From NCBI GenBank assembly GCA_963842235.1, contig CAWJFT010000001.1, positions 882,368 through 946,367 of the forward strand: 64,000 nt of DNA, in the 5' to 3' direction. Made by a program: the position numbers and the translations under genes. Position 1 is the first letter of the stretch. Each line of letters begins with the position of its first letter. This DNA is from an uncultured Actinomycetes bacterium. Its GTDB lineage: Bacteria; Actinomycetota; Thermoleophilia; Gaiellales; Gaiellaceae. The notes beneath the pieces were generated by a model. That model was not told the origin of the DNA and did no database searches. It was given only the letters and a program-made list of their open reading frames with translations. This document shows positions 4,952-53,568 of the stretch, one piece after another.

Positions 4952-6003
4952 AGCTGACGACCGCAGGCGAATCTCACGGCCCGGCGCTCGTGGGGATCCT
5001 GACGGGGCTGCCCGCCGGCCTTGTCCTCGATCGCGACGCGATCGACGCCGACCTCGCTCGCCGTCAGCAGGGCTATGGGCGCAGCCCTCGCCAGCAGATC
5101 GAGCAGGACCGGGTGGACGTCCTGGCCGGGCTCCGGCATGGACGCACGCTCGGCACGCCGCTTGCCTTCGTTGTCCAGAACCGGGATCACAAGAACTGGA
5201 CGTGGGGGATGGACCCGTGGCCGCCCGAGGGCGAGCCCGAAGGCAAGGGCACGAAGCCGGTCACACTGCCGCGGCCGGGCCATGCCGACCTCGCCGGCAC
5301 GCTGAAGTACGGCCACGCCGATGTCAGGGACACGCTGGAACGGGCAAGCGCCCGCCAGACGGCCATCACGGTTGCGGCCGGCGCCGTCGCCAAGGCGCTC
5401 CTGGCCGAGATCGGCGTCGAAGTGGCGGGATCCGTCGTCGAGATGGGCGACGTCGACGAGGCCCGCGCCGAGCGGGACACCGTGGGCGGCGTCGTCGAGG
5501 TGCGGACACGTGGAGTCCCGCCCGGGCTCGGTTCGTATGCGACGAAGGAGCAGCGGCTCGACGCTCGGCTCGCTGCGGCGCTGATGGGGATCCAGGCCGT
5601 CAAGGGGGTTGAGATCGGCGAGGGCTTCTCGCTCGCGAACCTTCGCGGCTCGCAGGCGCACGACGAGATCCTTCCGGGGCTCCGACGCGAGACGAACCGT
5701 GCCGGCGGGATCGAGGGCGGCGTCTCGAACGGGGAGGAGATCGTCGCCCGCGCGGCGATGAAGCCCCTTCCGACGCTCATGCGGCCCCTTCGCTCGGTCG
5801 ACATCGAGAGCGGCGAGCCCGGGGAGGCGCTGGTCGAGCGCAGCGACACCGCCGCGGTCGAGGCGCTTTCCGTCGTCGCCGAGGCGTCAGTTGCCTTCGA
5901 GCTTGCCCGCGCCGCCCGGGAGAAGTTCGGCGGCGATTCCGTCGACGATTTCGTCGCCGCCCACCGCGCCTATCTCGAGCGCATCCCGTGGCAACCGCGG
6001 TAG
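4948..6003 (+). CDS. aroC: chorismate synthase
   Basis: TAGESHGPALVGIL, RPGHADL..KYG, ERASARQTA and GGISNG-like motifs. GTGA overlap with aroE. Confidence 0.92.
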   Translation: MKLTTAGESHGPALVGILTGLPAGLVLDRDAIDADLARRQQGYGRSPRQQIEQDRVDVLAGLRHGRTLGTPLAFVVQNRDHKNWTWGMDPWPPEGEPEGKGTKPVTLPRPGHADLAGTLKYGHADVRDTLERASARQTAITVAAGAVAKALLAEIGVEVAGSVVEMGDVDEARAERDTVGGVVEVRTRGVPPGLGSYATKEQRLDARLAAALMGIQAVKGVEIGEGFSLANLRGSQAHDEILPGLRRETNRAGGIEGGVSNGEEIVARAAMKPLPTLMRPLRSVDIESGEPGEALVERSDTAAVEALSVVAEASVAFELARAAREKFGGDSVDDFVAAHRAYLERIPWQPR

Positions 6004-7307
6004 ACCGTCACATCGCGCTCATCGGGTTCATGGGCGCGGGGAAGTCGACCGTCGGGAAGCAGGTCGCCGTGCTCACCGGCCGGCCGTTCATCGACCTCGA
6101 CGCGGAGATCGAGCGCCGCCACGGGCCGATCCCGAAGCTGTTCGAGCGGGGCGAGGAGGAGTTCCGGCGGCTGGAGACGGTCGTCGCCGCCGAGATGCTT
6201 GCTCGCTCGCCGTCGGTGATCGCGCTCGGCGGCGGAGCGTTCGAGGCGGCGCGATCCGATCGCGCGCTGACCGTCCTGCTCGACGTCGACGTCGAGACGG
6301 CGTGGGAGCGAAGCCGGGAGAGCGACCGACCGCTGGCCCAGGACGAACCGAGCTTCCGCGCGCTCTATGCCCAGCGCGACTATCGAGCCGTTGCGGATGC
6401 GGTCGCCGAGGATGCGGAGGGCGTCTTGCTCGCCGCGCTCGGGATCGAGTTCGCCGGGCGCCCTGAAGCCGATGCGCTAATCGCCGATCCCCGGGCACTG
6501 GAGCTCCATCCCATCCAGCTCGGCGACACCTACACCGCCGAGGGGAAGACCCTCGCGGAGGCCGCGCGGCTCTGGCGGGAGCTCAGGGTCGGCCGCGACG
6601 CGACGATCGCCGCCTACGGCGGTGGGACGACCACCGACGTCGTCGGCTTCGTGGCTGCGACCTACATGCGCGGCGTCCGTTGGATCGCGCTGCCGACGAC
6701 CCTCGTCGGCCAGGTCGACGCCGCGATCGGGGGCAAGACGGCGGTCGACCTGCCGGAGGGCAAGAACCTCGTCGGTGCGTTCCACTATCCGGATCGGGTG
6801 CTGATCGACCCGTCGCTGCTCGTGACGCTTCCCGAGGCCGAGCGCCGAAACGGGATGGCCGAGGTGATCAAGACCGGCCTGCTCGTCGGCCGACCGCTCT
6901 GGGAGCTGCCCGACGAGGAGATGATCCGGGCGTGCGCCGCCTTCAAGGCGGGCGTCTGCCTGATGGATCCCTTCGAGCAGAAGGGCCGTCGCGAGATCCT
7001 CAACCTCGGCCACACCTTCGGGCACGCGCTCGAGGCCGCCTCGGACTACCGCCTCGCGCACGGCGAGGCGGTCGCGTTGGGCTTGACCGCTGCTCTGCGG
7101 CTCTCGGGCCTGGAGATCCCCGAGGTCCTCGAAGTGCAGCCGGTCCGCGTCGACCGCGAGCGCGCGTGGGCCGCGCTCCAGCGCGACAAGAAGGCGCGCG
7201 AGGGCAGAATCCGGCTCGTGCTGCTCGAGGGGCTCGGCAAGCCGGTTGTTCGCGAGGCCGAGCCCGGCGAGGTTCGCGCCGCCCTCGACGAGCTGATCGT
7301 GGCCTGA
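5988..7307 (+). CDS. aroKB: bifunctional shikimate kinase / 3-dehydroquinate synthase
   Basis: N-terminal LIGFMGAGKSTVG P-loop (AroK). C-terminal GGGTTTDVVGF, AAIGGKTAVD, NLGHTFGHALE, HGEAVALG (AroB). Confidence 0.85.
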   Translation: MATAVDRHIALIGFMGAGKSTVGKQVAVLTGRPFIDLDAEIERRHGPIPKLFERGEEEFRRLETVVAAEMLARSPSVIALGGGAFEAARSDRALTVLLDVDVETAWERSRESDRPLAQDEPSFRALYAQRDYRAVADAVAEDAEGVLLAALGIEFAGRPEADALIADPRALELHPIQLGDTYTAEGKTLAEAARLWRELRVGRDATIAAYGGGTTTDVVGFVAATYMRGVRWIALPTTLVGQVDAAIGGKTAVDLPEGKNLVGAFHYPDRVLIDPSLLVTLPEAERRNGMAEVIKTGLLVGRPLWELPDEEMIRACAAFKAGVCLMDPFEQKGRREILNLGHTFGHALEAASDYRLAHGEAVALGLTAALRLSGLEIPEVLEVQPVRVDRERAWAALQRDKKAREGRIRLVLLEGLGKPVVREAEPGEVRAALDELIVA

Positions 7308-23646: not shown

Positions 23647-24768
23647 ATGAACGTCGGCGTCCCCAAGGAGATCAAGCCGGACGAGTACCGCGTCGCGCTC
23701 ACGCCGGCAGGTGCGCTCGAGCTCACCCGCGACGGCCACTCGGTCGTGGTCGAGCAGGGAGCGGGGGAGGGCAGTGCCTTCAGGGACTCCGACTACAGCA
23801 GCGTCGGAGCGCGAATCGGCTCCGTCGCGGACGTTTGGGAGGCCGAGCTCATCCTCAAGGTCAAGGAGCCGCTGCCCGAGGAGTACACGAGGCTGCGCGA
23901 GGGTCAGGTGCTCTTCACCTACCTCCATCTCGCCGCGAGCGAGGATCTGACCCGGGCGCTGATGGAGAGCGGCGCGGCGTGCGTCGCATACGAGACCGTG
24001 GAGACGGACGACCGCGCGCTTCCGCTCCTCGCGCCGATGAGCGAGATCGCCGGCCGCCTTGCGGCGCAGGCCGGTGCGGCGTTCCTGGAGAAGCCGGTCG
24101 GTGGCCAAGGGCTCCTCCTCGGAGGCGTCCCGGGCGTGGCGCCGGGCGAAGCGGTGGTGATCGGTGGAGGGATGGTCGGCTACAACGCGGCCGTGATCGC
24201 GCTGGGGCTCGGCGCGCAGGTCACGATCCTCGAGCGCTCCATCGATCGGATGCGGCATCTGGAAGAGGTGCTCGGGTCGCGCGTCACGCTCCTGATGTCG
24301 TCCGGCCTCCAGATCCAGGAGTCGGTCGCGCATGCCGATGTCGTCATCGGCGCGGTGCTCATCCCCGGCGCGCTGGCGCCGAAGCTGATCACCCGCGAGA
24401 TGGTCGCCGGCATGAAAGACGGCTCAGTGATCGCCGACGTTGCGATCGACCAGGGCGGCTGTGTGGAGACGTCACGACCGACGACGCACTCTGAGCCGGT
24501 CTTCGTCGTCGACGGCGTCATCCACTACTGCGTCGCGAACATGCCCGGTGCCGTTCCGATCACCTCTACGAAGGCGTTGACGAACGCCACGCTGCCGTAT
24601 GTCGAGGGGATCGCGAACGAGGGTCTCCGCGAGGCGATCGCCCGTGATCGCGCGCTCGCGCGGGGTGTGAACGTGCTCGAAGGGAAGGTGACGTACGAAG
24701 CTGTGGCCGAAGCACACGGCCTCGACTTCACCCCGCTGGACGAGGTCCTCAGGTTCTCCCCGGTCTAG
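23647..24768 (+). CDS. ald: alanine dehydrogenase
   Basis: MNVGVPKEIK..EYRVALTP, VKEP, GGVPGV..VIGGGMVGYNAA, DVAIDQGG, HYCVANMPGAVP. Confidence 0.95.
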   Translation: MNVGVPKEIKPDEYRVALTPAGALELTRDGHSVVVEQGAGEGSAFRDSDYSSVGARIGSVADVWEAELILKVKEPLPEEYTRLREGQVLFTYLHLAASEDLTRALMESGAACVAYETVETDDRALPLLAPMSEIAGRLAAQAGAAFLEKPVGGQGLLLGGVPGVAPGEAVVIGGGMVGYNAAVIALGLGAQVTILERSIDRMRHLEEVLGSRVTLLMSSGLQIQESVAHADVVIGAVLIPGALAPKLITREMVAGMKDGSVIADVAIDQGGCVETSRPTTHSEPVFVVDGVIHYCVANMPGAVPITSTKALTNATLPYVEGIANEGLREAIARDRALARGVNVLEGKVTYEAVAEAHGLDFTPLDEVLRFSPV

Positions 24769-24992
24769 TGCCCCATCCAGCAATACATGCCGGCTTCTGG
24801 CCCGCGATCACGCGGCGCCAGAGCCCACCCTCCTCCTCACCAAGGTCTACAGACCTTGGCTCGTCGGAGTGCGAACTCTGGATTCGGACGGTCGTACCGG
24901 CGAAGCCGGCACGACCTCTGCTGGTCGGCGCCGACGAGTCGGCGCCTTGGGCTCGCGACCCAGAATTCCGGCGGCATTACCGGACGGGGCAC
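24768..24992. mobile_element. MITE copy A (225 bp, imperfect TIRs about 19 bp, TA target duplication)
   Basis: GTGCCCCATCCAGCAATAC at the left end matches the reverse complement of the right end (GTGCCCCGTCCGGTAATGC). It is flanked by TA/TA. The first 114 nt match copy B at 113 positions. Confidence 0.8.
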
Positions 24993-42808: not shown

Positions 42809-43993
42809 ATGATTGCCTGCCTTGCCATCCCCGGATTCGAGCTTCGCGCCGCGCTTCGCAAGCGGCCTAGCCTCGTGCTTCAGCCCGCCGCGCTCGCGCC
42901 TCCCGAGGGTGCCGAGCCGCTGATCGGGCCCATCACCGCCGCGGCCGACCAGGCCGGCGTCAGGCCCGGCATGCGCATGGGGGAGGCGCTCGCGACCTGT
43001 CCGAAGCTTGTTCTCGTCGAGCCCGACCCTGCCTCGGCCGAGCGTGACTGGGAGGAGATCGTCCGCAGCCTGGAGGATTCCGGTTTCGCCGTCGAGTCGA
43101 TCGCGCTCGGCACCGCCTATTTCGACACGCGCGGGGTGGAGCGCCTCTACGGCGGCCTCGAAGCGGCGCTCAAGCGCGCCCTCGCCGCGGTCGGCTCACA
43201 CTGGGACGCGCGCGTTGGTGCGGCCACCCGCCGCTTTGCCGCACTCGCGGCTGCCAACGTCGCGCGCCCAGGCCAGGCGCTGATCGTCTCGGACGAGCAC
43301 ACGAAGGATTTCCTCGCACCGCTCCCGCTCCGCCTGCTCGGACTGGACGAGCGCCGCCGTGAGGAGTTGGAAGCGCTGGGCGTGAAACGTGTTGGACAGC
43401 TTGCCGGGCTCCCGGGCGCTGCTGTGGCCGAACGACTGGGACCGGACGGTCGCAGCGCCTGGGGCCAGGCGAGAGGGGGGAAGCGCGGTCGCATCTGGGG
43501 ACGACGCCCGCCGGCCGAGATCTTCGAGGTGCTCGAGTTCCCCGAGGCGGTCGGCAACGAGCTCACGCTGCGCCGGGCGCTCGCCACCCTCGTCGACCGG
43601 GCGCTCAGCCGCCAGGAACGCGCCGATCGTTTCGTCCGAAAAGTTGCACTTTCGGCACGACTCGTCGGCGGAGCGTCCTGGCGCCGAACGTTGACGTTCC
43701 GGGAACCGGCTGGAGAGCCCGACCGCCTCCGCATCGCGCTCGGGCCGAAGCTGAACGATCTGCCCGCGCCGGTGCTGGCGCTCCGGCTCGAGCTCACGGA
43801 GCTCACGGAGTCGCGCGGACAGCAACTCGAGCTCGTGAAGCCGGAAGGCGCCGAGCTCCAGACGAAGCTGAAGGAGGGGTTGCGTCAGGTGAAGGCCAGT
43901 ACAGGCGGTGGAGCCGTCGCCAGTGTGGTCGAAGTCGCGCCGTGGTCGCGAATTCCGGAAGCACGAGCGCTGTTCGTGCCGCGGGACGACTAG
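42809..43993 (+). CDS. imuB: ImuB, Y-family-polymerase-like subunit of the SOS mutasome
   Basis: MIACLAIPGFELRAAL, GVRPGMRMGEALATCP, YFDTRG, LGVKRVGQLAGLP. It sits behind SOS boxes with dnaE2 downstream. Confidence 0.85.
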   Translation: MIACLAIPGFELRAALRKRPSLVLQPAALAPPEGAEPLIGPITAAADQAGVRPGMRMGEALATCPKLVLVEPDPASAERDWEEIVRSLEDSGFAVESIALGTAYFDTRGVERLYGGLEAALKRALAAVGSHWDARVGAATRRFAALAAANVARPGQALIVSDEHTKDFLAPLPLRLLGLDERRREELEALGVKRVGQLAGLPGAAVAERLGPDGRSAWGQARGGKRGRIWGRRPPAEIFEVLEFPEAVGNELTLRRALATLVDRALSRQERADRFVRKVALSARLVGGASWRRTLTFREPAGEPDRLRIALGPKLNDLPAPVLALRLELTELTESRGQQLELVKPEGAELQTKLKEGLRQVKASTGGGAVASVVEVAPWSRIPEARALFVPRDD

Positions 43994-44456: not shown

Positions 44457-45227
44457 CTATCGGCCGCGGGCGCGCGCGGCGAAGCCGCCGTCGGGCGCGT
44501 GGAGGTTGAAGACGCGGGCAGGCGCGATCGGGCGGAAACCGTGCGTGAAGTGGGGCGGGGCGGCCACGTATGTCCCGGAACCGGCTCGGACCGTCTCGTC
44601 TCCGAGGAGAAAGTCGACCTCGCCGTCGAGGACGAAGAAGGAATCGACGTGGTCGTCGTGGTGGTGGGGGTCGACACCTTCCCAACGCTCGTCGAAGACC
44701 ATCTCATGGAGCGAGAGCTGCGGCGTCTCGGCCCTGATCGTGTTCTCGAGCAGCCGGCGCTTCAGCGGCTCTCCGCCGTCGGGGCCAGCCACGATCGCCT
44801 CGGCCGGGCCGTACGGCTCGTCGACGTCGTAGCTGTCCCAGTCGACCCTGACGCCGTCACGGGTCAGCCGGCGGATGTACTCGATGAAGCCGCCGTCGGG
44901 GGCATGGATGTTGAGGTAGTGCGCTCCGCCTGGCCCGGGGTTCGTGAAGCCGTGGACGATGTTCGGCGGGATCGCAACCGACGTGCCGGCACCGGCCAGG
45001 AGGGTCTCGGTCCCGTTCGTGAACTCGAGCTGTCCTTCGAGGACGTAGAACGCGTCGACGTGCTCCTTGTGGAAATGCGGGCCGGGGCCCTCGAAGTCCG
45101 GCCCCACGGTGACCTCATTGACCGAGATCTCGGGCCGCTCGATCTTCACGACGATCCGCTCGTTCAGCCGCTCGCCCTCGCCGGGGCCTAGGAAGACGCC
45201 TTGGGCTACATCGAGCTCCATGCGCAC
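44457..45227 (-). CDS. bicupin protein (two cupin barrels)
   Basis: Two copies of the G.HFH/HHH..E..YVLEG/FVLDG cupin motif with downstream P.HGF. Confidence 0.8.
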   Translation of the reverse strand: MRMELDVAQGVFLGPGEGERLNERIVVKIERPEISVNEVTVGPDFEGPGPHFHKEHVDAFYVLEGQLEFTNGTETLLAGAGTSVAIPPNIVHGFTNPGPGGAHYLNIHAPDGGFIEYIRRLTRDGVRVDWDSYDVDEPYGPAEAIVAGPDGGEPLKRRLLENTIRAETPQLSLHEMVFDERWEGVDPHHHDDHVDSFFVLDGEVDFLLGDETVRAGSGTYVAAPPHFTHGFRPIAPARVFNLHAPDGGFAARARGR

Positions 45228-48200
45228 TCAGCCTATTCGTTCCTCGACGGCGCCTCGCTGCCCGAGGAGCTGGCGGTGCGGGCAGCAGAGCTCGGCTACG
45301 AGGCGCTTGCGCTCACCGACCACGAGGGCGTCTACGGCTCGCTCGAGTTCGCACACGCGGCGAAGGCGTTCGGCGTCCGGCCGATCACGGGCGCCGAGGT
45401 CGCGCTCGCCGACGGCTCGCACGTCACGCTGCTGGTCGAGGGCCAGCGCGGTTACGCGAACCTCTGTCGCCTCTTGACGGCGGCGCACGCACACACCCGT
45501 CCGAAGGAGGGCGAGCGTGCAGTCGACCCGGCGCTCGATCAGGCGCTGCTCGAGGAGCTGAACGACGGCCTCGTCTGCCTCTCCGGCTGCTCGCGCTCGG
45601 GGCTCGCCGTCCGAAACCCGAACGCCGCTGCGCGACTGGCCCGAGCGTTCGGCGCCGAGCGCTTCTTCGTCGAGCTCCAACGGCCGTTCGAACGCGGAGA
45701 CGAGCGGCGGAACGCGCGGCTCCGTGACCTCGCCGAGGCGCTCCGGGTGGAGGCCGTCGTCACCGGCGACGTTCACGCCCACGATGCGGCTCGCGTGCGG
45801 CTCCAGGACACGCTCGTCGCGATTCGCCACCGCACCTCGCTCGAGGGCTCGGAGCCGGAGCGCCGCGGGAACCACGAGGCGATCCTGCGCGCGCCCGGGG
45901 AGATCGCCGACCGCTTTCCACTCGACCATGAGGCAGTCGAGCGGAGCGCACGCATCGCCGAGCGCTGCGAGTTCGACCTGACCCAGGAGCTCGGCTACCG
46001 CTATCCGGACTTTTCGGACCAGGCCGAGCCGGCCATCGGGCAGCTCGCCGGCGTCTGCAACCACGCCTTCGAGGCGCGCTACGGAGCTAGTTACAACTTG
46101 TTACTAGCTCGGGCTCGCGCCCGCCTCGAAGAGGAGCTGAAGCTGATCGACGAGCTCGGGCTCGCCGGCTTCTTCCTGCTGCACCACGAGGTGCTCGAGC
46201 TCGCCCGCGACGTCGCGAACGAGGTCCGGGGCCGCGACTCCCCGCGCAATTCACTCCCACCCGGCCGGGGCCGCGGCAGCTCCGTCGGCTCGATCGTCTG
46301 CTACCTGACCGGGCTCTCGCATGTCGATCCCGTTCAGGCCGACCTGTCTCTCGGGCGCTTCATCAACCGTGAGCTCGACGCCGTCCCCGACATCGACCTC
46401 GACTTTCCGCGCGACATTCGCGAGAAGCTGATCGTCGCGGTCACCGAGCGCTACGGCCGCGAGCATGCGGCGCTCGTCGCCAGCTTCTCGACCTACCGCT
46501 CGCGAGGAGCGATCCGCGACGTTGGCAAGGCGCTGGGGCTCCCGTTCGGCGAGCTCGAGCGGCTCGCGCGGGTCTCGGACGGCTGGAACGCGAAGCGCGT
46601 CGCCGAGGAGCTCCGCCTCGTCCCCGGCTTCGAGGACAAGGCGGACTCGCCGCGCTGGCGTGCCTTCGCCGAGCTCACCCACGAGATCGCGGGCCTCCCG
46701 CGCCACATCTCGCAGCACCCGGGCGGGATGGTGATCTCGTCGCGGCCGCTCGTCGAGCTCGTCCCGGTGCAGCCGGCGGCCATGGTCGGCCGCCAGCTTT
46801 GCCAGTGGGACAAGGACTCCTGCGACGACGCCGGCTTCCTCAAGATCGACCTCCTCGGGCTGGGGATGCTCTCCGCCGTCGAGGAGTGCGTCGATCAGAT
46901 CGCACGGCTCCGCGGTGAGCCGATCGACCTCTCGCGCATCCCGTTCGACGACAAGGAGGTCTACGTGCAGATCCAGGCGGCGGACACCGTCGGCGCCTTC
47001 CAGATCGAGAGTCGCGCGCAGATGCAGAGCATCCTCCGCACCCGGCCGGAGACGCTCGAGGACATCATGGTGCAGGTCGCGCTCGTCCGCCCCGGGCCGA
47101 TCCAGGGCAAGGCCGTGCATCCGTACATCGCGCACCGCCAGCGGCTGCGGGAGGATCCGAGCTTCGTCCCGCCCGTCGATCACCCGCTCCTCGCCGAGCC
47201 GCTGAAGGAGACGCTCGGCGTCGTCGTCTTCCAGGACCAGGTGCTGGAGGTCGCGATGGCGCTGTCGGGGTTCAGCGTCGGCGAGGCGGAAGGGCTGCGC
47301 CGCGCAATGAGCCGCAAACGGAGCGAGGCGGCGCTCGAGGCGTACCGGAAGCGGTTCGTGGAGGGAGCGGCGGCGAACGGGGTCGAGGAGCGGCTGGCGA
47401 ACGAGATCTACGACAAGCTCGTCGGCTTCTCCGGCTTCGGGTTCCCGAAGTCTCATGCGGCGGCCTTCGGGCTGCTGGCCTACCAGTCGCAGTGGCTGCG
47501 CTGCCACTATCCGGCTGAGTTCCTGGCCGCGCTGTTGAACGCGCAGCCGATGGGCTTCTATCCGCCGGCGACGCTCGTGCGGGACGCACAGCGGCGCGGG
47601 GTGGAGGTGCTCCCTCCGGACGTCAACCTCAGCGAGGCGAAGTGCACCGTCCAGGACGGGAAGGTGCGGATCGGGATCGAGTACGTGACGTCGATCGGTG
47701 AGGACGATGCGAAGGCGCTGGTCGACGAGCGCGGGCGCGGCGGGCCGTTCCGGTCGGTGCGTGACCTGGCGCAGCGGGCGCCGCTCCGCCGCGAGGGGCT
47801 CGAGGCGCTGATCTCGAGCGGCGCGTGCGCCGAGTTCGGCGACGAGCCGCGGCCGCTGCTCTGGGAGGCCGGGCTTGCGCCGCGGTCGACGTCGGTTCCG
47901 GGGTCGGGAGGAGAGGAGCGCCAGCTGGCCCTGTCTCTGGATCCCACGGTCGAGACGCCGGAGCTCCCGGAGCCGACCGACTGGGAGCGCATGCTGACGG
48001 ACTACCGGACGACGAGCCTCACCGTCGGCGTCCATCCGTTGAAGCTGCTCCGGCCGCATCTACCCGAGCAGGTCCTTTCGAGCCACGACCTGGGACAATC
48101 CCTAGACCGGGCGCAAGTGGCCGTGGCGGGAATGGCGATCGCGCGCCAGCGGCCGGCGACCGCGAACGGTGTCGTCTTCATGCTGCTCGAGGACGAGTTC

Positions 48201-48425
48201 GGGCAGATGAACCTGATCGTTCCGCCGACGGTGTACGACCGCCATCGCGCGATCGTCCGCGGCGAGCCGCTGATCCTCGCGCGAGGGCGCTTCGAACGGC
48301 AGGGCCGGAACCAGAACGTGCTCGTGCGAGAGCTGGAGACGCTGGGCCCGCTCGCACGACAGGTCGCCGACGTGCCGGAGCTTGCCTCCTCGCTCCCGCC
48401 GGCCCATCACTTCGGCCACCGCTAG
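45201..48425 (+). CDS. dnaE2: error-prone DNA polymerase III alpha-like subunit DnaE2 (ImuC)
   Basis: TTG 45201: YIELHAHSAYSFLDGAS (PHP domain), GRGSSVGSIVCYL, PDIDLDF, HPGGMVIS, FQIESRAQM, 1074 aa. It lies downstream of imuB. Confidence 0.9.
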   Translation: MGYIELHAHSAYSFLDGASLPEELAVRAAELGYEALALTDHEGVYGSLEFAHAAKAFGVRPITGAEVALADGSHVTLLVEGQRGYANLCRLLTAAHAHTRPKEGERAVDPALDQALLEELNDGLVCLSGCSRSGLAVRNPNAAARLARAFGAERFFVELQRPFERGDERRNARLRDLAEALRVEAVVTGDVHAHDAARVRLQDTLVAIRHRTSLEGSEPERRGNHEAILRAPGEIADRFPLDHEAVERSARIAERCEFDLTQELGYRYPDFSDQAEPAIGQLAGVCNHAFEARYGASYNLLLARARARLEEELKLIDELGLAGFFLLHHEVLELARDVANEVRGRDSPRNSLPPGRGRGSSVGSIVCYLTGLSHVDPVQADLSLGRFINRELDAVPDIDLDFPRDIREKLIVAVTERYGREHAALVASFSTYRSRGAIRDVGKALGLPFGELERLARVSDGWNAKRVAEELRLVPGFEDKADSPRWRAFAELTHEIAGLPRHISQHPGGMVISSRPLVELVPVQPAAMVGRQLCQWDKDSCDDAGFLKIDLLGLGMLSAVEECVDQIARLRGEPIDLSRIPFDDKEVYVQIQAADTVGAFQIESRAQMQSILRTRPETLEDIMVQVALVRPGPIQGKAVHPYIAHRQRLREDPSFVPPVDHPLLAEPLKETLGVVVFQDQVLEVAMALSGFSVGEAEGLRRAMSRKRSEAALEAYRKRFVEGAAANGVEERLANEIYDKLVGFSGFGFPKSHAAAFGLLAYQSQWLRCHYPAEFLAALLNAQPMGFYPPATLVRDAQRRGVEVLPPDVNLSEAKCTVQDGKVRIGIEYVTSIGEDDAKALVDERGRGGPFRSVRDLAQRAPLRREGLEALISSGACAEFGDEPRPLLWEAGLAPRSTSVPGSGGEERQLALSLDPTVETPELPEPTDWERMLTDYRTTSLTVGVHPLKLLRPHLPEQVLSSHDLGQSLDRAQVAVAGMAIARQRPATANGVVFMLLEDEFGQMNLIVPPTVYDRHRAIVRGEPLILARGRFERQGRNQNVLVRELETLGPLARQVADVPELASSLPPAHHFGHR
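46089..46105. repeat. 17-nt near-palindrome AGTTACAACTTGTTACT, copy 1 (inside dnaE2)
   Basis: Identical string at 51350-51366 and 51417-51433, read directly. Confidence 0.9.
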
Positions 48426-49531: not shown

Positions 49532-50610
49532 CCTTCGAGGAAGCGCGGGCCGCGTTTCCGGTCCTGGCGCGGTACGCATACCTGAACGCCGGCTCGGTCG
49601 GGCCGATGGCGCAGTCGACGTACGACGCCGTCGTAGAAGCGGAACGGGACGAGTTGGGCCCGCGTGGAAGCCACCCGGCCTTCGAGCGGATCATCGAGGA
49701 GCGGGAGCGGCTTCGCGGAGTCGTTGCGGCTGAGATCGGGGTCGATGCGGAGCGCATGTCGCTGACGACGTCCACGTCCGAAGGGTGCCGCGTCGTGCTC
49801 GGGGGCCTCGACCTGCGCCCGGACGACGAGATCGTCACGACCGACGCGGAGCACTTTGGCCTCCTCGGCCCGGTTCACGCTTCGGGCGCGCGGGTCCGGG
49901 TTGCGAAGGTGCGGGACCGCCCAGCCGACGAAGCGCTTGACGCCATCATCGGCGAGGTCGGCCCCCGGACGCGCCTCGTCGCACTCTCGCACGTCCTATG
50001 GATCACCGGTCACGTTGTCCCGATCGGGGCGCTGAAGGAGGCCGTCTCCGCACCGCTGCTCGTCGACGGCGCGCAGTCGGTCGGCGCGATCCCCGTGAAC
50101 GCCGAACCGTTCGACTTCTACACCGTCTCGGGGCAGAAGTGGCTGTGCGGGCCGTCGCCGACCGGCGGGCTCTACGTCCGTGATCCCGAGCGCCTGCATG
50201 TGGCGGCGCCGAGCTACTTCTCGCAGCGCTCTTATGAGCCGGACGGCTCGTTCGTCCCCAGCGAGGGCGCTCGTCGCTTCGACCAGAACTGGATCCCCGC
50301 GGCCTACATCGCCGGGCTCGAGGCCGCAATTGCGGCAGCGCCAGAGTGGCGCTTCGAGCGTTCCCGCGAGATCACCGAACGCTGCCGCGAGCGGCTCGTC
50401 GACGCAGGCCACGACGTCGTCACCGAGCCGGGACACTCGACGCTGGTCTCCTGGCGCTGGGAAGGTGACACGAAGGAGGTCGTGAAGCGGCTCTACGAGG
50501 AGGGTGTCGTCGTCCGCGATCTGCCTGGGACCGGCCTCCTCCGCGCGTCCTGCGGCTACTGGACGAGCGAAGAGGACATCGACCGGCTGATCCGCATACT
50601 TCCGGCATGA
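49528..50610 (+). CDS. class V aminotransferase / cysteine desulfurase-like PLP enzyme
   Basis: GTG 49528 (GTGA overlap). YLNAGSVGP, VDGAQSVGAIP, DFYTVSGQKWLCGP (PLP Lys). Confidence 0.85.
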   Translation: MTFEEARAAFPVLARYAYLNAGSVGPMAQSTYDAVVEAERDELGPRGSHPAFERIIEERERLRGVVAAEIGVDAERMSLTTSTSEGCRVVLGGLDLRPDDEIVTTDAEHFGLLGPVHASGARVRVAKVRDRPADEALDAIIGEVGPRTRLVALSHVLWITGHVVPIGALKEAVSAPLLVDGAQSVGAIPVNAEPFDFYTVSGQKWLCGPSPTGGLYVRDPERLHVAAPSYFSQRSYEPDGSFVPSEGARRFDQNWIPAAYIAGLEAAIAAAPEWRFERSREITERCRERLVDAGHDVVTEPGHSTLVSWRWEGDTKEVVKRLYEEGVVVRDLPGTGLLRASCGYWTSEEDIDRLIRILPA

Positions 50611-50641
50611 GGGACTCCGACTCTGTAGCGCCGGGCATTTG

Positions 50642-51280
50642 ATGGCGACGGTCACGGTCCGCGGCATCGGGAACGCGAGCACGAGTCCGGACGAGGCGTC
50701 CGTCACGCTCGTGATCGAAGCCTTCGAGCAGACGGCTGCCGCCGCCCTCGCCAAGGTCGCCGAGCAGACGCAGGCAGCGATCGAGCTTTGCGACTCGCTC
50801 GGAATCAAGCCCGCAGCCCGCGTGACGACAGGAGCCAGCGTGGCCGAGCACGGCGAGCACGACCGGGATGGAAGATGGCAGCACCGCGGGTATCGCGCGT
50901 GGAACCAGGTCGTCGTGCGGGTTGGCGAGGCCCCGGTCGTCGGCGAGCTGATCGCCGGCGCCGTGGACCGAGGCGCTCAGGTCAACGGCCCAGCCTGGAA
51001 CATCGCCCCGGACAATCCAGCCCACGCTGTGGCCTGCCGGGAGGCGGCACTCGACGCCCGGCGGCGTGCCGAGGCCTACGCCGATGCGCTCGGCGCCCGT
51101 GTAGGCGCGCTCGTCGCCGTTCGCGACCCAGGAACGGGCCCCGTGCCGCCGCCTCCGCGCCCGATGCGGATGGCGGCGATGGACGCAGGCGCTGTGGAAG
51201 CCCTCCCAGTGGAGGTCGGCGAGCAGATCGTCACGGGGGTCGTCGAGGTGGAGTTCCAGCTCGAACAGGGAAGCGCGTGA
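50642..51280 (+). CDS. SIMPL/DUF541-family protein
   Basis: VTVRGIGNASTSPDEASVTL..A.A..KVAEQT... pattern and overall length. The family is recalled from memory. Confidence 0.7.
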   Translation: MATVTVRGIGNASTSPDEASVTLVIEAFEQTAAAALAKVAEQTQAAIELCDSLGIKPAARVTTGASVAEHGEHDRDGRWQHRGYRAWNQVVVRVGEAPVVGELIAGAVDRGAQVNGPAWNIAPDNPAHAVACREAALDARRRAEAYADALGARVGALVAVRDPGTGPVPPPPRPMRMAAMDAGAVEALPVEVGEQIVTGVVEVEFQLEQGSA

Positions 51281-51349
51281 CGCTCCGCTTGGTCCTTGCG
51301 CTCTCGCACTACAGATCCGCGACGAGGTCCAATCGAAACGTAGCCCGCT

Positions 51350-51366
51350 AGTTACAACTTGTTACT
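51350..51366. repeat. 17-nt near-palindrome, copy 2
   Basis: AGTTACAACTTGTTACT in the 3'-3' intergenic gap. Confidence 0.9.
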
Positions 51367-51416
51367 TGGGTTGGACCGCCGCGAATCAGCGCATGCCACA
51401 GGCGTTTCGGCCGGCA

Positions 51417-51433
51417 AGTTACAACTTGTTACT
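51417..51433. repeat. 17-nt near-palindrome, copy 3
   Basis: AGTTACAACTTGTTACT, here extended to the 21-nt palindrome CAAGTTACAACTTGTTACTTG. Confidence 0.9.
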
Positions 51434-51476
51434 TGCCCAGTCGGCGAAGCACCCCGAGCGCCTCGAACGGCGAGCT

Positions 51477-52052
51477 TCAGGCGGCGTCTGCGGCGGTCCT
51501 CAGTCCGAGCTCGCCGGCGATCGGCTTCATCGCGTCCGTGACGGTCTGAATGTGCTCGTCCAGCTCGACGCCGAGGAGCTCCGCGCCGGCGTAGACCTCG
51601 TCCCGGTGGACGCCTGCAGCGAATGACGGCTGCTTGAGCTTCTTCTTCACGGACTTCGGAGTCAGCGTCTCGATGCCGTCGGGCCGTACGAGCCCGCAGG
51701 CGTGAATGAACCCGGCCAGCTCGTCGCACGCGAAGAGCGCACGCTTCAGATCGGTATCCCGCGGCATCTCCAGATGCTCCGCGTGCGAGAGCACTGACTC
51801 GATCAGCTCCTCCGGATAGCCCTCCTCGCGCAGGATCGCCGCGCCGTCCTGGGGGTGTTGGTCGAGCGTCGGATGGATCTCGTAGTCAAAGTCGTGCAGC
51901 AGCGCCGTGGCGGCCCAGAACTCCTCGTCGCCGCCGAATTTCCGCGCATAGGCGCGGGTGGCGGCCTCCACCGCCAGCGCATGACGCAGGAGTGCCTGGC
52001 TCTTCGTATAACGATTGAGGGTCTCCCAAGCCAGGTCCCTAGTGACCTCCAT
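51477..52052 (-). CDS. HD-domain phosphohydrolase
   Basis: C-terminal 191 aa of ORF 51477..53180: [24 protein letters not shown]. Confidence 0.8.
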
Positions 52053-52076
52053 AACACTGAGTACGATAGTCCGCTC

Positions 52077-53390
52077 GTGTCCACGACTCTCGTCGCAGAC
52101 GCACTGATGGAGAGCTTCGTCATCGAGGGGGGCATCCCCCTCGGCGGCCGCGTCTCCGCTGCCGGAAACAAGAACGGCGCGCTGCCGATCCTGGCCGCGA
52201 CGCTGCTCGCGACCGAGCCTGTGGTGCTGAGCAACGTCCCGCGGATCCGGGACGTCGAGACGATGCTCGCTCTGCTCGCCGATGTCGGAGCCGACGTCGA
52301 CTGGCTCGGGCGGAACGAGGTCCGGATCGACTCCGCCAATGCGAGCAAGTTCGAGCTCGACCCCGAGCTCTGCAGCCGCATCCGCGCATCCTTTCTCCTG
52401 GCCGGCCCACTGCTTGCCCGTTTCGGGCGGGCGAGCGTGCCGCCGCCGGGCGGCGACGTGATCGGAAGGCGCCGGCTCGACCCGCACATCCATGCACTCG
52501 CCGAGCTCGGCGTCGAGATCGAGCTCAACGGCCGCTTCGACATGCAAACGTCGGGCCTTCAGGGGCGGCGGATCTTCCTCGACGAGGCGAGTGTCATGGC
52601 GACCGAGAACGCGATCATGGCCGCTGCGGTGGCGCGCGGCGAGACGGTGATCGGGAACGCCGCCTGCGAGCCGCACGTCCAGGATCTCTGCCGGTTCCTC
52701 TGTTCGCTTGGGGCGAGCATCGAGGGGATTGGCTCGAACGTCTTGCGGATCCGCGGCGTTCAACAGCTCTCGGGCGGCGAGTGGCGGATCGCTCCGGAGC
52801 ACATCGAGGTCGCGAGCTTCATCGGGCTCGCGGCGGTCACGGGCGGCGACGTGACCGTCGAGAACGTCGACATCGACGACCTGGTATCGATCCTCCCCGT
52901 CTTCGCCCGGCTCGGCGTGCACGTCGAGCTCGGAGAGTCGAGCGTGCGCGTCCCGCCCGGCCAGGAGCTGAAGATCGAGGACGACCTCGGCGACCAGATC
53001 CCGAAGATCGAGGACGGCCCGTGGCCGGCGTTCCCCGCCGACCTGACCTCGATCGCTCTCGCCGTGGCAACGCAAGCGGAGGGCACGGTGCTGATCTTCG
53101 AGAAGATGTTCGAGAACCGGCTGTTCTTCGTGGACAAGCTGGTCAGCATGGGCGCGAGGATCATCCTCTGCGACCCGCACCGCGCCGTCGTCACCGGCCC
53201 CGCGAAGCTGTACGGACAGCGCATGGCCAGTCCGGACATCCGCGCCGGGATGGCGATGTTGATCGCCGGTCTCTGCGCCGAGGGGGTCTCGACGATCGGA
53301 AACGTGGGCGAGATCGACCGCGGCTACGAGCGAATCGACGAACGGCTGCGCGCGCTCGGTGCGCGTATCGAACGCGTGGAGAACGCCTAG
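52077..53390 (+). CDS. murA: UDP-N-acetylglucosamine 1-carboxyvinyltransferase
   Basis: [60 protein letters not shown]. The start is GTG 52077 or ATG 52107. Confidence 0.93.
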
Positions 53391-53551
53391 TGCCCCATCC
53401 AGTAATACATGCCGGCTTCTGGCCCGCGATCACGCGGCGCCAGAGCCCACCCTCCTCCTCACCAAGGTCTACAGACCTTGGCTCGTCGGAGTGCGAACTC
53501 TGGCTTGGTGCTCGCGACCCAGAATTCCGGCGGCATTACTGGAAGGGGCAC
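53390..53551. mobile_element. MITE copy B (162 bp)
   Basis: GTGCCCCATCCAGTAATAC ... GCATTACTGGAAGGGGCAC, flanked by TA/TA. It lacks the 64-nt internal module of copy A. Confidence 0.8.
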
Positions 53552-53568
53552 TAGCGCCGCGTTTCGCG

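Follow-up and report, generated by a model that had tools for sequence, protein, structure and literature searches.

Paired 21-bp near-palindromes between convergent genes of a Gaiellaceae genome as predicted binding sites of a small helix-turn-helix-like protein family

Why would two identical 19-mers lie close together in the space between two convergent genes, where no promoter of either gene is involved? This question is raised by a locus in the 64-kb stretch of DNA that was analysed here as a whole (the window). Two exact copies of the 19-mer AGTTACAACTTGTTACTTG lie on the + strand, at 51350-51368 and 51417-51435, and their starts are 67 nt apart; a third copy with one mismatch is found at 46089-46107. 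The 17-mer core is exact in all three places, starting at 51350 and 51417 in a 196-nt convergent gap and at 46089 inside dnaE2. Thus, the exact matches bear out an earlier note on this DNA, which had described two identical 17-mers in this gap with 67 nt between their starts and 19 nt in common. For the 15-mer core, the three exact copies in 64 kb compare with a mean of 0.03 in 100 shuffles of the window, and no further copy with up to 3 mismatches is present across the 64 kb. The exact 17-mer was not matched in any shuffled version of the window.

Two near-palindromes in a convergent gap

Together with its flanks, the window motif forms a 21-bp near-palindrome, C-W-AGTWACAA-S-TTGTWACT-W-G. 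Site A (CTAGTTACAACTTGTTACTTG, 51348-51368, with the 17-mer core at 51350-51366) and site B (CAAGTTACAACTTGTTACTTG, 51415-51435, core at 51417-51433) are separated by a G+C-rich spacer of 46 nt (51369-51414). The length of this spacer sets the centre-to-centre distance to 67 bp, or about six helical turns, and its sequence is unconserved across other pairs. The single site CTAGTTACAACTTGTTACTAG at 46087-46107 lies within the coding frame of dnaE2, which encodes the error-prone DNA polymerase III alpha (45201-48425, + strand). It had been proposed that the flanks keep their palindromy through compensating bases. This does not hold, as copy 2 reads CTAGT...ACTTG and the two flank positions are independent of each other over 195 sites (Fisher p = 0.78).

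The gap measures 196 nt from the stop of a SIMPL/DUF541 gene (50639-51280, + strand; Pfam 4e-41), which lies 68 nt before site A, to the stop at 51477 of a small HD-domain gene on the minus strand, 42 nt after site B. Both stops agree with the earlier gene assignment. The minus-strand ORF of 567 aa (51477-53180) is not itself the HD gene: it contains an HD domain in residues 398-489 only, and its remainder is antisense to a real EPSP synthase gene (~52125-53390, + strand; 5e-68). Because the HD domain is confined to these residues and the rest lies opposite EPSP synthase, the HD gene comprises about 190 aa, roughly 51477-52061 with an approximate start. The codon-position G+C was also examined; the 567-aa reading frame arises artefactually from the G+C-rich sequence and consists mostly of an antisense shadow. 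No promoter- or terminator-like pattern, including no intrinsic-terminator-like site, was detected in the SIMPL-HD gap. Moreover, the gap is convergent and no promoter of a flanking gene is involved at the window pair, as had been argued before.

The window also contains another, distinct repeat, which is MITE-like, measures about 170 nt and has terminal inverted repeats of about 28 bp (CTAGTGCCCCATCCAGYAATACATGCCGG ... CCGGCGGCATTACTGGAAGGGGCACTAG). It is found as a full copy between aroA and hisB (53392-53560) and as a truncated copy (24765-24881). A 96%-identical copy is located in a related MAG (L017, 5020-5189).

The closest relative, Gaiellaceae SMAG_U929 (locus L008), is 92% identical over 6.9 kb, and all three window sites are present in it, with site A identical in sequence. 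In a syntenic locus of 80% identity (L182), the site pair is missing from the SIMPL-HD gap. Three orthologous comparisons yield 116/126 identical columns within sites (92%) versus 263/381 in the surrounding columns (69%; p = 3e-8), and site positions are kept between species of 77-92% identity. The suggestion of selection for a symmetric site, as opposed to simple duplication, is thereby upheld; the window feature is real and under selection. An arrangement of an HD gene followed by a site pair that the window seemed to share with another locus (L001) was discarded, as the copy in L001 is non-orthologous to that of the window.

A dispersed site family with helically phased pairs

The earlier note had proposed to follow the motif through whole genomes, and it does recur elsewhere in genomes and in relatives. 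When 185,579 species genomes were searched, the exact 17-mer was found in 48 stretches. About 18 of them have a G+C content of 66-72%, and of these 18, fourteen are titled Gaiellaceae and the others uncultured Actinomycetes or Thermoleophilia. What is left of the 48 consists of chance matches in low-GC DNA and one contig-end repeat. Metagenomes were scanned with the degenerate pattern CWAGTWACAMNKTGTWACTWG, outside of which the G-type centre falls, and nearly all matches among those listed lie on contigs with 66-75% G+C. Among high-GC contigs, the 21-bp motif is confined to Gaiellaceae-like genomes, with about 18 genome loci and at least ~115 metagenome loci. These genomes carry dispersed site units at a density of, very roughly, one per 30-80 kb. 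The family consensus is the 21-bp near-palindrome CWAGTWACA-MNK-TGTWACTWG, and its centre occurs in three types, namely ACAA-S-TTGT as in the window, ACAC-N-GTGT and ACAG-N-CTGT.

About 40% of the sites are paired and about 60% are true singles. In most genome loci, a partner site is present. Around 72 isolated sites with enough flanking sequence, the dnaE2 site included, no weaker partner was found above background. The loci listed contain 58 non-redundant pairs, which divide into 45 short and 13 long ones (367-416 bp). The start-to-start distances of the short pairs cluster at 54-56, 64-67, 76-78, 88-89, 99 and 111 bp. A period scan of these 45 pairs gave R = 0.72-0.75 at 11.1-11.5 bp (Rayleigh p ~1e-11), and the top R in 2000 simulated spacing sets was 0.53. 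The window pair, with its 67 bp, falls in the six-turn class. Spacers measure 33-114 nt, plus one 11-nt outlier, and have no evident common sequence; spacer length, rather than content, appears to be constrained.

The placement of the sites was assessed by codon-phase analysis, which assigned 130 of 150 units to intergenic and 20 to intragenic positions. Where coding sequence lies on both sides, 29 units are convergent, 21 tandem and 6 divergent, all counts resting on crude codon-phase gene calls. Convergent and divergent junctions are equally many in a genome, yet 29 convergent units face only 6 divergent ones (binomial ~6e-5), which indicates that the sites avoid promoter regions. Some of the 6 divergent units are the promoter of the gene for the 98-aa protein described below. 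Pfam assignments for 30 flanking genes revealed no common theme in their function.

The copy in dnaE2 that the earlier note mentioned is present, with the qualification that it lies inside the reading frame, where it encodes S-Y-N-L-L-L. In aligned DnaE2 homologues, this peptide falls into a linker between 'RY' and 'ARLEEEL'. Because this linker is variable in sequence but constant in length, we rejected the idea that the site is an insertion. Several lineages retain a site at this position of dnaE2, of AACTT, CACTGTG or CAGACTG type and in different reading frames. DnaE2 peptides like SNKLLL correspond to AGTAACAAGTTGTTACT, and the peptide NVTLCYKG, read in another frame, corresponds to GTAACACTGTGTTAC. 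At the DNA level, the site was confirmed as CACTGTG type in L182 and, with two mismatches, as CAGACTG type in L183. The type of the dnaE2 site follows that of the lineage's own sites, which therefore argues for a function.

Two further observations concern dnaE2. On long-read metagenome contigs (L176 and L177, near locus coordinate 6000), the gene is broken into several ORFs with many frameshifts, and six gene calls on long-read contigs begin at or just past the site-bearing linker. A split of dnaE2 at the site was considered and rejected, since L176 is frameshifted there without containing any site; given these frameshifted contigs and the site-less L176, the splitting is probably an assembly artefact. 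Upstream of dnaE2 in the window lies a 394-aa ORF (42809-43993), at the position of which relatives carry a Y-family polymerase (IMS, imuB-like), and a cupin gene is located between this position and dnaE2. If the ORF is imuB-like as in the relatives, the intragenic site would lie inside a mutasome operon.

A small helical protein whose gene is bracketed by sites

The earlier note had also suggested screening candidate HTH proteins against the motif, and this proved productive, as it led to a family of 97-99 aa. In L026 and L031, sites about 380 bp apart surround a 98-aa ORF, and the two encoded proteins are 50% identical. All 13 long pairs, which were found by DNA pattern alone and of which 8 came from the metagenome scan only, contain a homologue of this protein. 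The loci that were fetched with the protein alone (L049-L055, L178-L181 and L184-L186) all have an upstream site and at least a recognisable downstream site. A site is found 45-85 nt before the start codon in 20 lineages, nearly all of which have another one 5-25 nt after the stop. Thus, the gene of the 97-99 aa protein is bracketed by two sites in nearly every lineage examined. Its synteny is conserved within clades, from which we conclude that it is vertically inherited. No copy of the gene is present within the 64-kb window.

A word-seeded search collected 205 members of this family and a profile search 418 clusters at 50% identity; the best 150 of the profile-search matches are all small stand-alone proteins, with no transposase fusions. 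The protein yielded no usable match in Pfam (E < 10), NCBIfam, PHROGs or PDB sequences. AlphaFold predicts an all-alpha structure of five helices, with a pLDDT of ~90 for residues 11-60. The best Foldseek matches to this model are weak (E >= 0.8) and comprise the HTH domains of MuA I-gamma, the Tc3 transposase N-terminal domain and a chain of the Tn7 TnsABCD transpososome. The 97-99 aa proteins are therefore described here as a candidate HTH-like DNA-binding family.

Within a near-invariant RPSY-x-R motif, residue 48 of the protein is either E or Q and goes with the base at position 10 of the site. In a first set of lineages, E was found with A in 10/10 and Q with C in 5/5. A forward prediction was then made for four further proteins: both Q proteins have C, and both E proteins have G in place of the predicted A. 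A fifth protein, a distant Q member, has C at position 10. The strict rule that E implies A was discarded, as it failed on the two E proteins with G-type sites. The rule that survives pairs E48 with a purine (12/12) and Q48 with C (8/8), in 20/20 lineages that are phylogenetically non-independent. The switch between E and Q occurs inside several sub-clades. Residue 48 is located in the first turn of predicted helix 3, where the recognition helix of an HTH would begin, and its relation to the base at position 10 constitutes a readable specificity rule. The family shows three traits expected of an autoregulated DNA-binding protein with palindromic operators, namely a dyad of about two helical turns (195 sites), a site beside the protein's own gene and covariation between residue and base.

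Several features were seen around individual orthologues. In many of them, the end of the upstream site merges into a hexamer similar to TTGACA or TTGGCA, possibly the promoter of the 98-aa gene. A GGCAC(G/A)TT-like motif is also common to many orthologues; it follows the upstream site at a distance of about 15-25 nt, as in L050 and L055 (9951-9990 in both). In one member (P0252; L184, 2308-2607), the HTH part is kept, with RPSYQR and C-type sites, and a hydrophobic tail resembling a membrane anchor takes the place of the C-terminal helices. In one clade with common upstream flanks (L031, L099 and L149), a XerC/D-like tyrosine recombinase gene lies 3' of the 98-aa gene on the same strand. It was identified by Pfam in L031 only (5902-6783, minus strand), and the 80-nt gap before it contains the downstream site.

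Proposed reading, its alternatives and known systems

We hypothesise that each of the two 17-mers forms the core of a predicted palindromic binding site of 21 bp, and that the two sites, as a phased pair, would be bound cooperatively by the 97-99 aa HTH family. We assign this reading a probability of roughly 65%. It draws on the observed site family, the selection acting on it, its helical phasing, its placement at gene ends, the linkage between site and gene, and the covariation of residue and base; from these we infer binding, oligomeric state, autoregulation and role. The binder would be the all-helical HTH protein, encoded elsewhere in the genome, and each palindrome would be read by one protein dimer. 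With integral turns of ~11 bp between the sites, two dimers would be placed on the same face of the DNA and could act cooperatively. The complex may be a dimer of dimers, or else a short assembly in which the DNA is wrapped or bridged; a centre distance of 55 bp is too short for a plain DNA loop. The protein would autoregulate through the sites at its own gene.

One alternative is that the sites belong to another binder, such as an OmpR-type response regulator on a GTTACA-N4-GTTAC direct repeat or a different transcription factor; the 98-aa gene would then be the target under its tightest control. An operator-flanked gene need not encode its binder, and the window variant can also be read as a 10-bp direct repeat, GTTAC-N5-GTTAC. 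Moreover, the same 15-mer is present in a paper on OmpR of Acidithiobacillus. However, the direct-repeat form accounts for a minority of 20/101 AA-type sites. As the two W positions vary, the inverted forms AGTAACA...TGTTACT and AGTTACA...TGTAACT dominate, and an OmpR-family box of tandem 10-bp direct half-sites was rejected on this ground. In addition, the base at the centre goes with E or Q at residue 48 of the 98-aa protein in all 20 lineages, which is not expected of a mere target gene. Because the inverted forms dominate and this covariation implicates the 98-aa protein itself, we consider another binder unlikely. Apart from this unrelated OmpR paper, the motif was not encountered in the literature searched. 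Neither the sites nor the protein had any other match in the databases and papers searched, and no paper on palindromic intergenic sites in Gaiella was found among them.

The sites could also be the core sites of a Xer-like recombinase or invertase, with pairs that mark invertible or excisable segments. The XerC/D-like gene near the bracketed gene of one clade would fit this idea, as would the additional T/T asymmetry of the window copies, and helical phase matters in some recombination reactions. However, the variable centre consists of one base and leaves no asymmetric crossover region of 6-8 bp that could give polarity, and spacers down to 33 nt are too short for synapsis. Single sites are common, no recombinase is consistently adjacent among the loci examined, and all orthologous comparisons are collinear, without an inverted spacer. 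The window also lacks the GC-skew switch expected of a dif-like site. Xer/dif, with its single 28-bp site, asymmetric 6-8 bp centre and location at the replication terminus, was likewise rejected in view of the many copies found here. We therefore regard the site-specific recombination site of the earlier note as very unlikely.

A very small mobile element, of which the pairs would be the ends or footprints, had also been raised in the earlier note. It would be a miniature element (MITE, REP or REPIN-like), and the 98-aa gene would be cargo of its full-length form. Palindromic ends on both sides of a short segment or small gene are compatible with it, as are the REP-like preference for gaps at the 3' ends of genes and the weak fold matches, which are transposase end-binding HTH domains. 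On the other hand, the spacers share no evident sequence and their lengths are quantised by ~11 bp, and flanking direct repeats are no more frequent than in the control, leaving no target-site duplications. The conserved synteny of the 98-aa gene, the lack of transposase fusions among its relatives and the retention of site positions between species speak against mobility as well. Such an origin is improbable to a high degree, and a MITE in the strict sense was rejected, as the copies differ in length and share no evident internal sequence. Finally, a small RNA, terminator or hairpin formed by or between the repeats, which the self-complementary sequences and a convergent gap, where terminators are expected, had brought to mind, can scarcely be credited: fold z-scores are -1.05 (+ strand) and 0.04 (- strand), 44 pair spacers fold no better than shuffles (mean z -0.04), each palindrome would have a 1-nt loop, Rfam yields no relevant match within 50500-52300 at E <= 1 and, over the whole window, nothing that reaches the gathering score, and the gap without promoter- or terminator-like pattern, the non-covarying flank positions and the sites inside coding frames all run counter to it.

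If the sites are bound in phased pairs by the 97-99 aa protein, as we propose, the window pair, placed between the converging genes for the SIMPL and HD proteins, would act as a roadblock or insulator, or as an architectural anchor. Judging from its placement, this is our best guess. The conserved site inside dnaE2 could be an intragenic roadblock, and the sites may have a segregation or architectural role, the former of which the earlier note had also listed. A more far-reaching idea, which we find doubtful at present, is a genome-wide 'punctuation' in Gaiellaceae: phased pairs at the ends of genes, as well as single sites in a few genes like dnaE2, would be clamped by an HTH protein that is small and specific to the lineage. 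If this were true, transcription barriers or chromosome anchors would be made of protein in a genome of 70% G+C that has no U-tract terminators at this gap, and the specificity of the protein would co-evolve in concert with all its sites across the genome.

Gaiellaceae are abundant soil actinobacteria with almost no genetics. An unannotated family of this size is now paired with a precise DNA site and a phased-pair architecture, and its sites lie away from promoters, an unusual placement for a classical regulon. Should binding be confirmed, the family would be a tractable system in which a protein changes its specificity jointly with all of its sites. It may also reveal a new means by which high-GC bacteria mark the ends of genes or gate dnaE2.

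Comparing the family with known systems reveals partial similarities with several of them. As with RTP and TerI/TerII of B. subtilis and Tus and TerB of E. coli, the gene of a small, here predicted, DNA-binding protein lies beside paired sites for that protein. When the motif is read on the opposite strand (46089-46105 and 51350-51366), it contains the 9-mer GTTGTAACT, the core of E. coli Ter. However, Ter sites are asymmetric and polar, whereas the sites described here are palindromic and the window lacks a skew switch, so the match is probably due to chance. RTP is a winged-helix protein, in contrast to the helical HTH fold predicted here, and the bracketed protein, having no Pfam match at all, has none to Tus or RTP either. 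REP and BIME elements are likewise extragenic repeats that prefer positions after genes and between convergent genes. They differ in their imperfect stem of 35-40 nt, compared with an exact 21-bp dyad without a stable hairpin, in their much higher copy number and in their RAYT transposase. In the case of REP/REPIN with RAYT, the flanked gene found here encodes a 98-aa helical protein without a Pfam match and no Y1 (HUH) transposase, and a folding signal is absent. The KorA/KorB operators of IncP plasmids are also identical short palindromes that occur many times, some far from promoters, and are read by a small HTH repressor. Whereas KorA/KorB belong to a plasmid system with partition partners, the sites here are chromosomal, vertically inherited and without an ATPase neighbour.

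There is also a resemblance to MatP/matS, Noc/NBS, SlmA/SBS and ParB/parS, which use near-invariant palindromes of 13-16 bp in tens of copies. As in these systems, the sites are both inter- and intragenic and A+T-rich relative to the genome. However, there is no sequence match to parS, matS, NBS or SBS, and by inspection the motif does not fit the parS consensus TGTTNCACGTGAAACA. The protein has no Pfam match, and phased pairs are found here that are not a feature of those systems. NrdR boxes and the looping operators of lac, gal, ara and deo form operator pairs that are cooperative when in helical phase. The sites of the window family share with them the palindromes at integral-turn spacing, a period of ~11 bp as in in-vivo looping, and a putative regulator whose own gene carries sites. 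Unlike those pairs, which lie in the promoters of specific operons, they avoid divergent gaps and use the 3' ends of genes, at distances down to 55 bp and with an unrelated, much smaller protein. With a protein that has no detectable relative and a site that deviates from all of their consensus sequences, the feature belongs to none of the compared families. By analogy, it would resemble phased operator pairs most in its working, and MatP/matS, Noc/NBS and SlmA/SBS in copy number and invariance.
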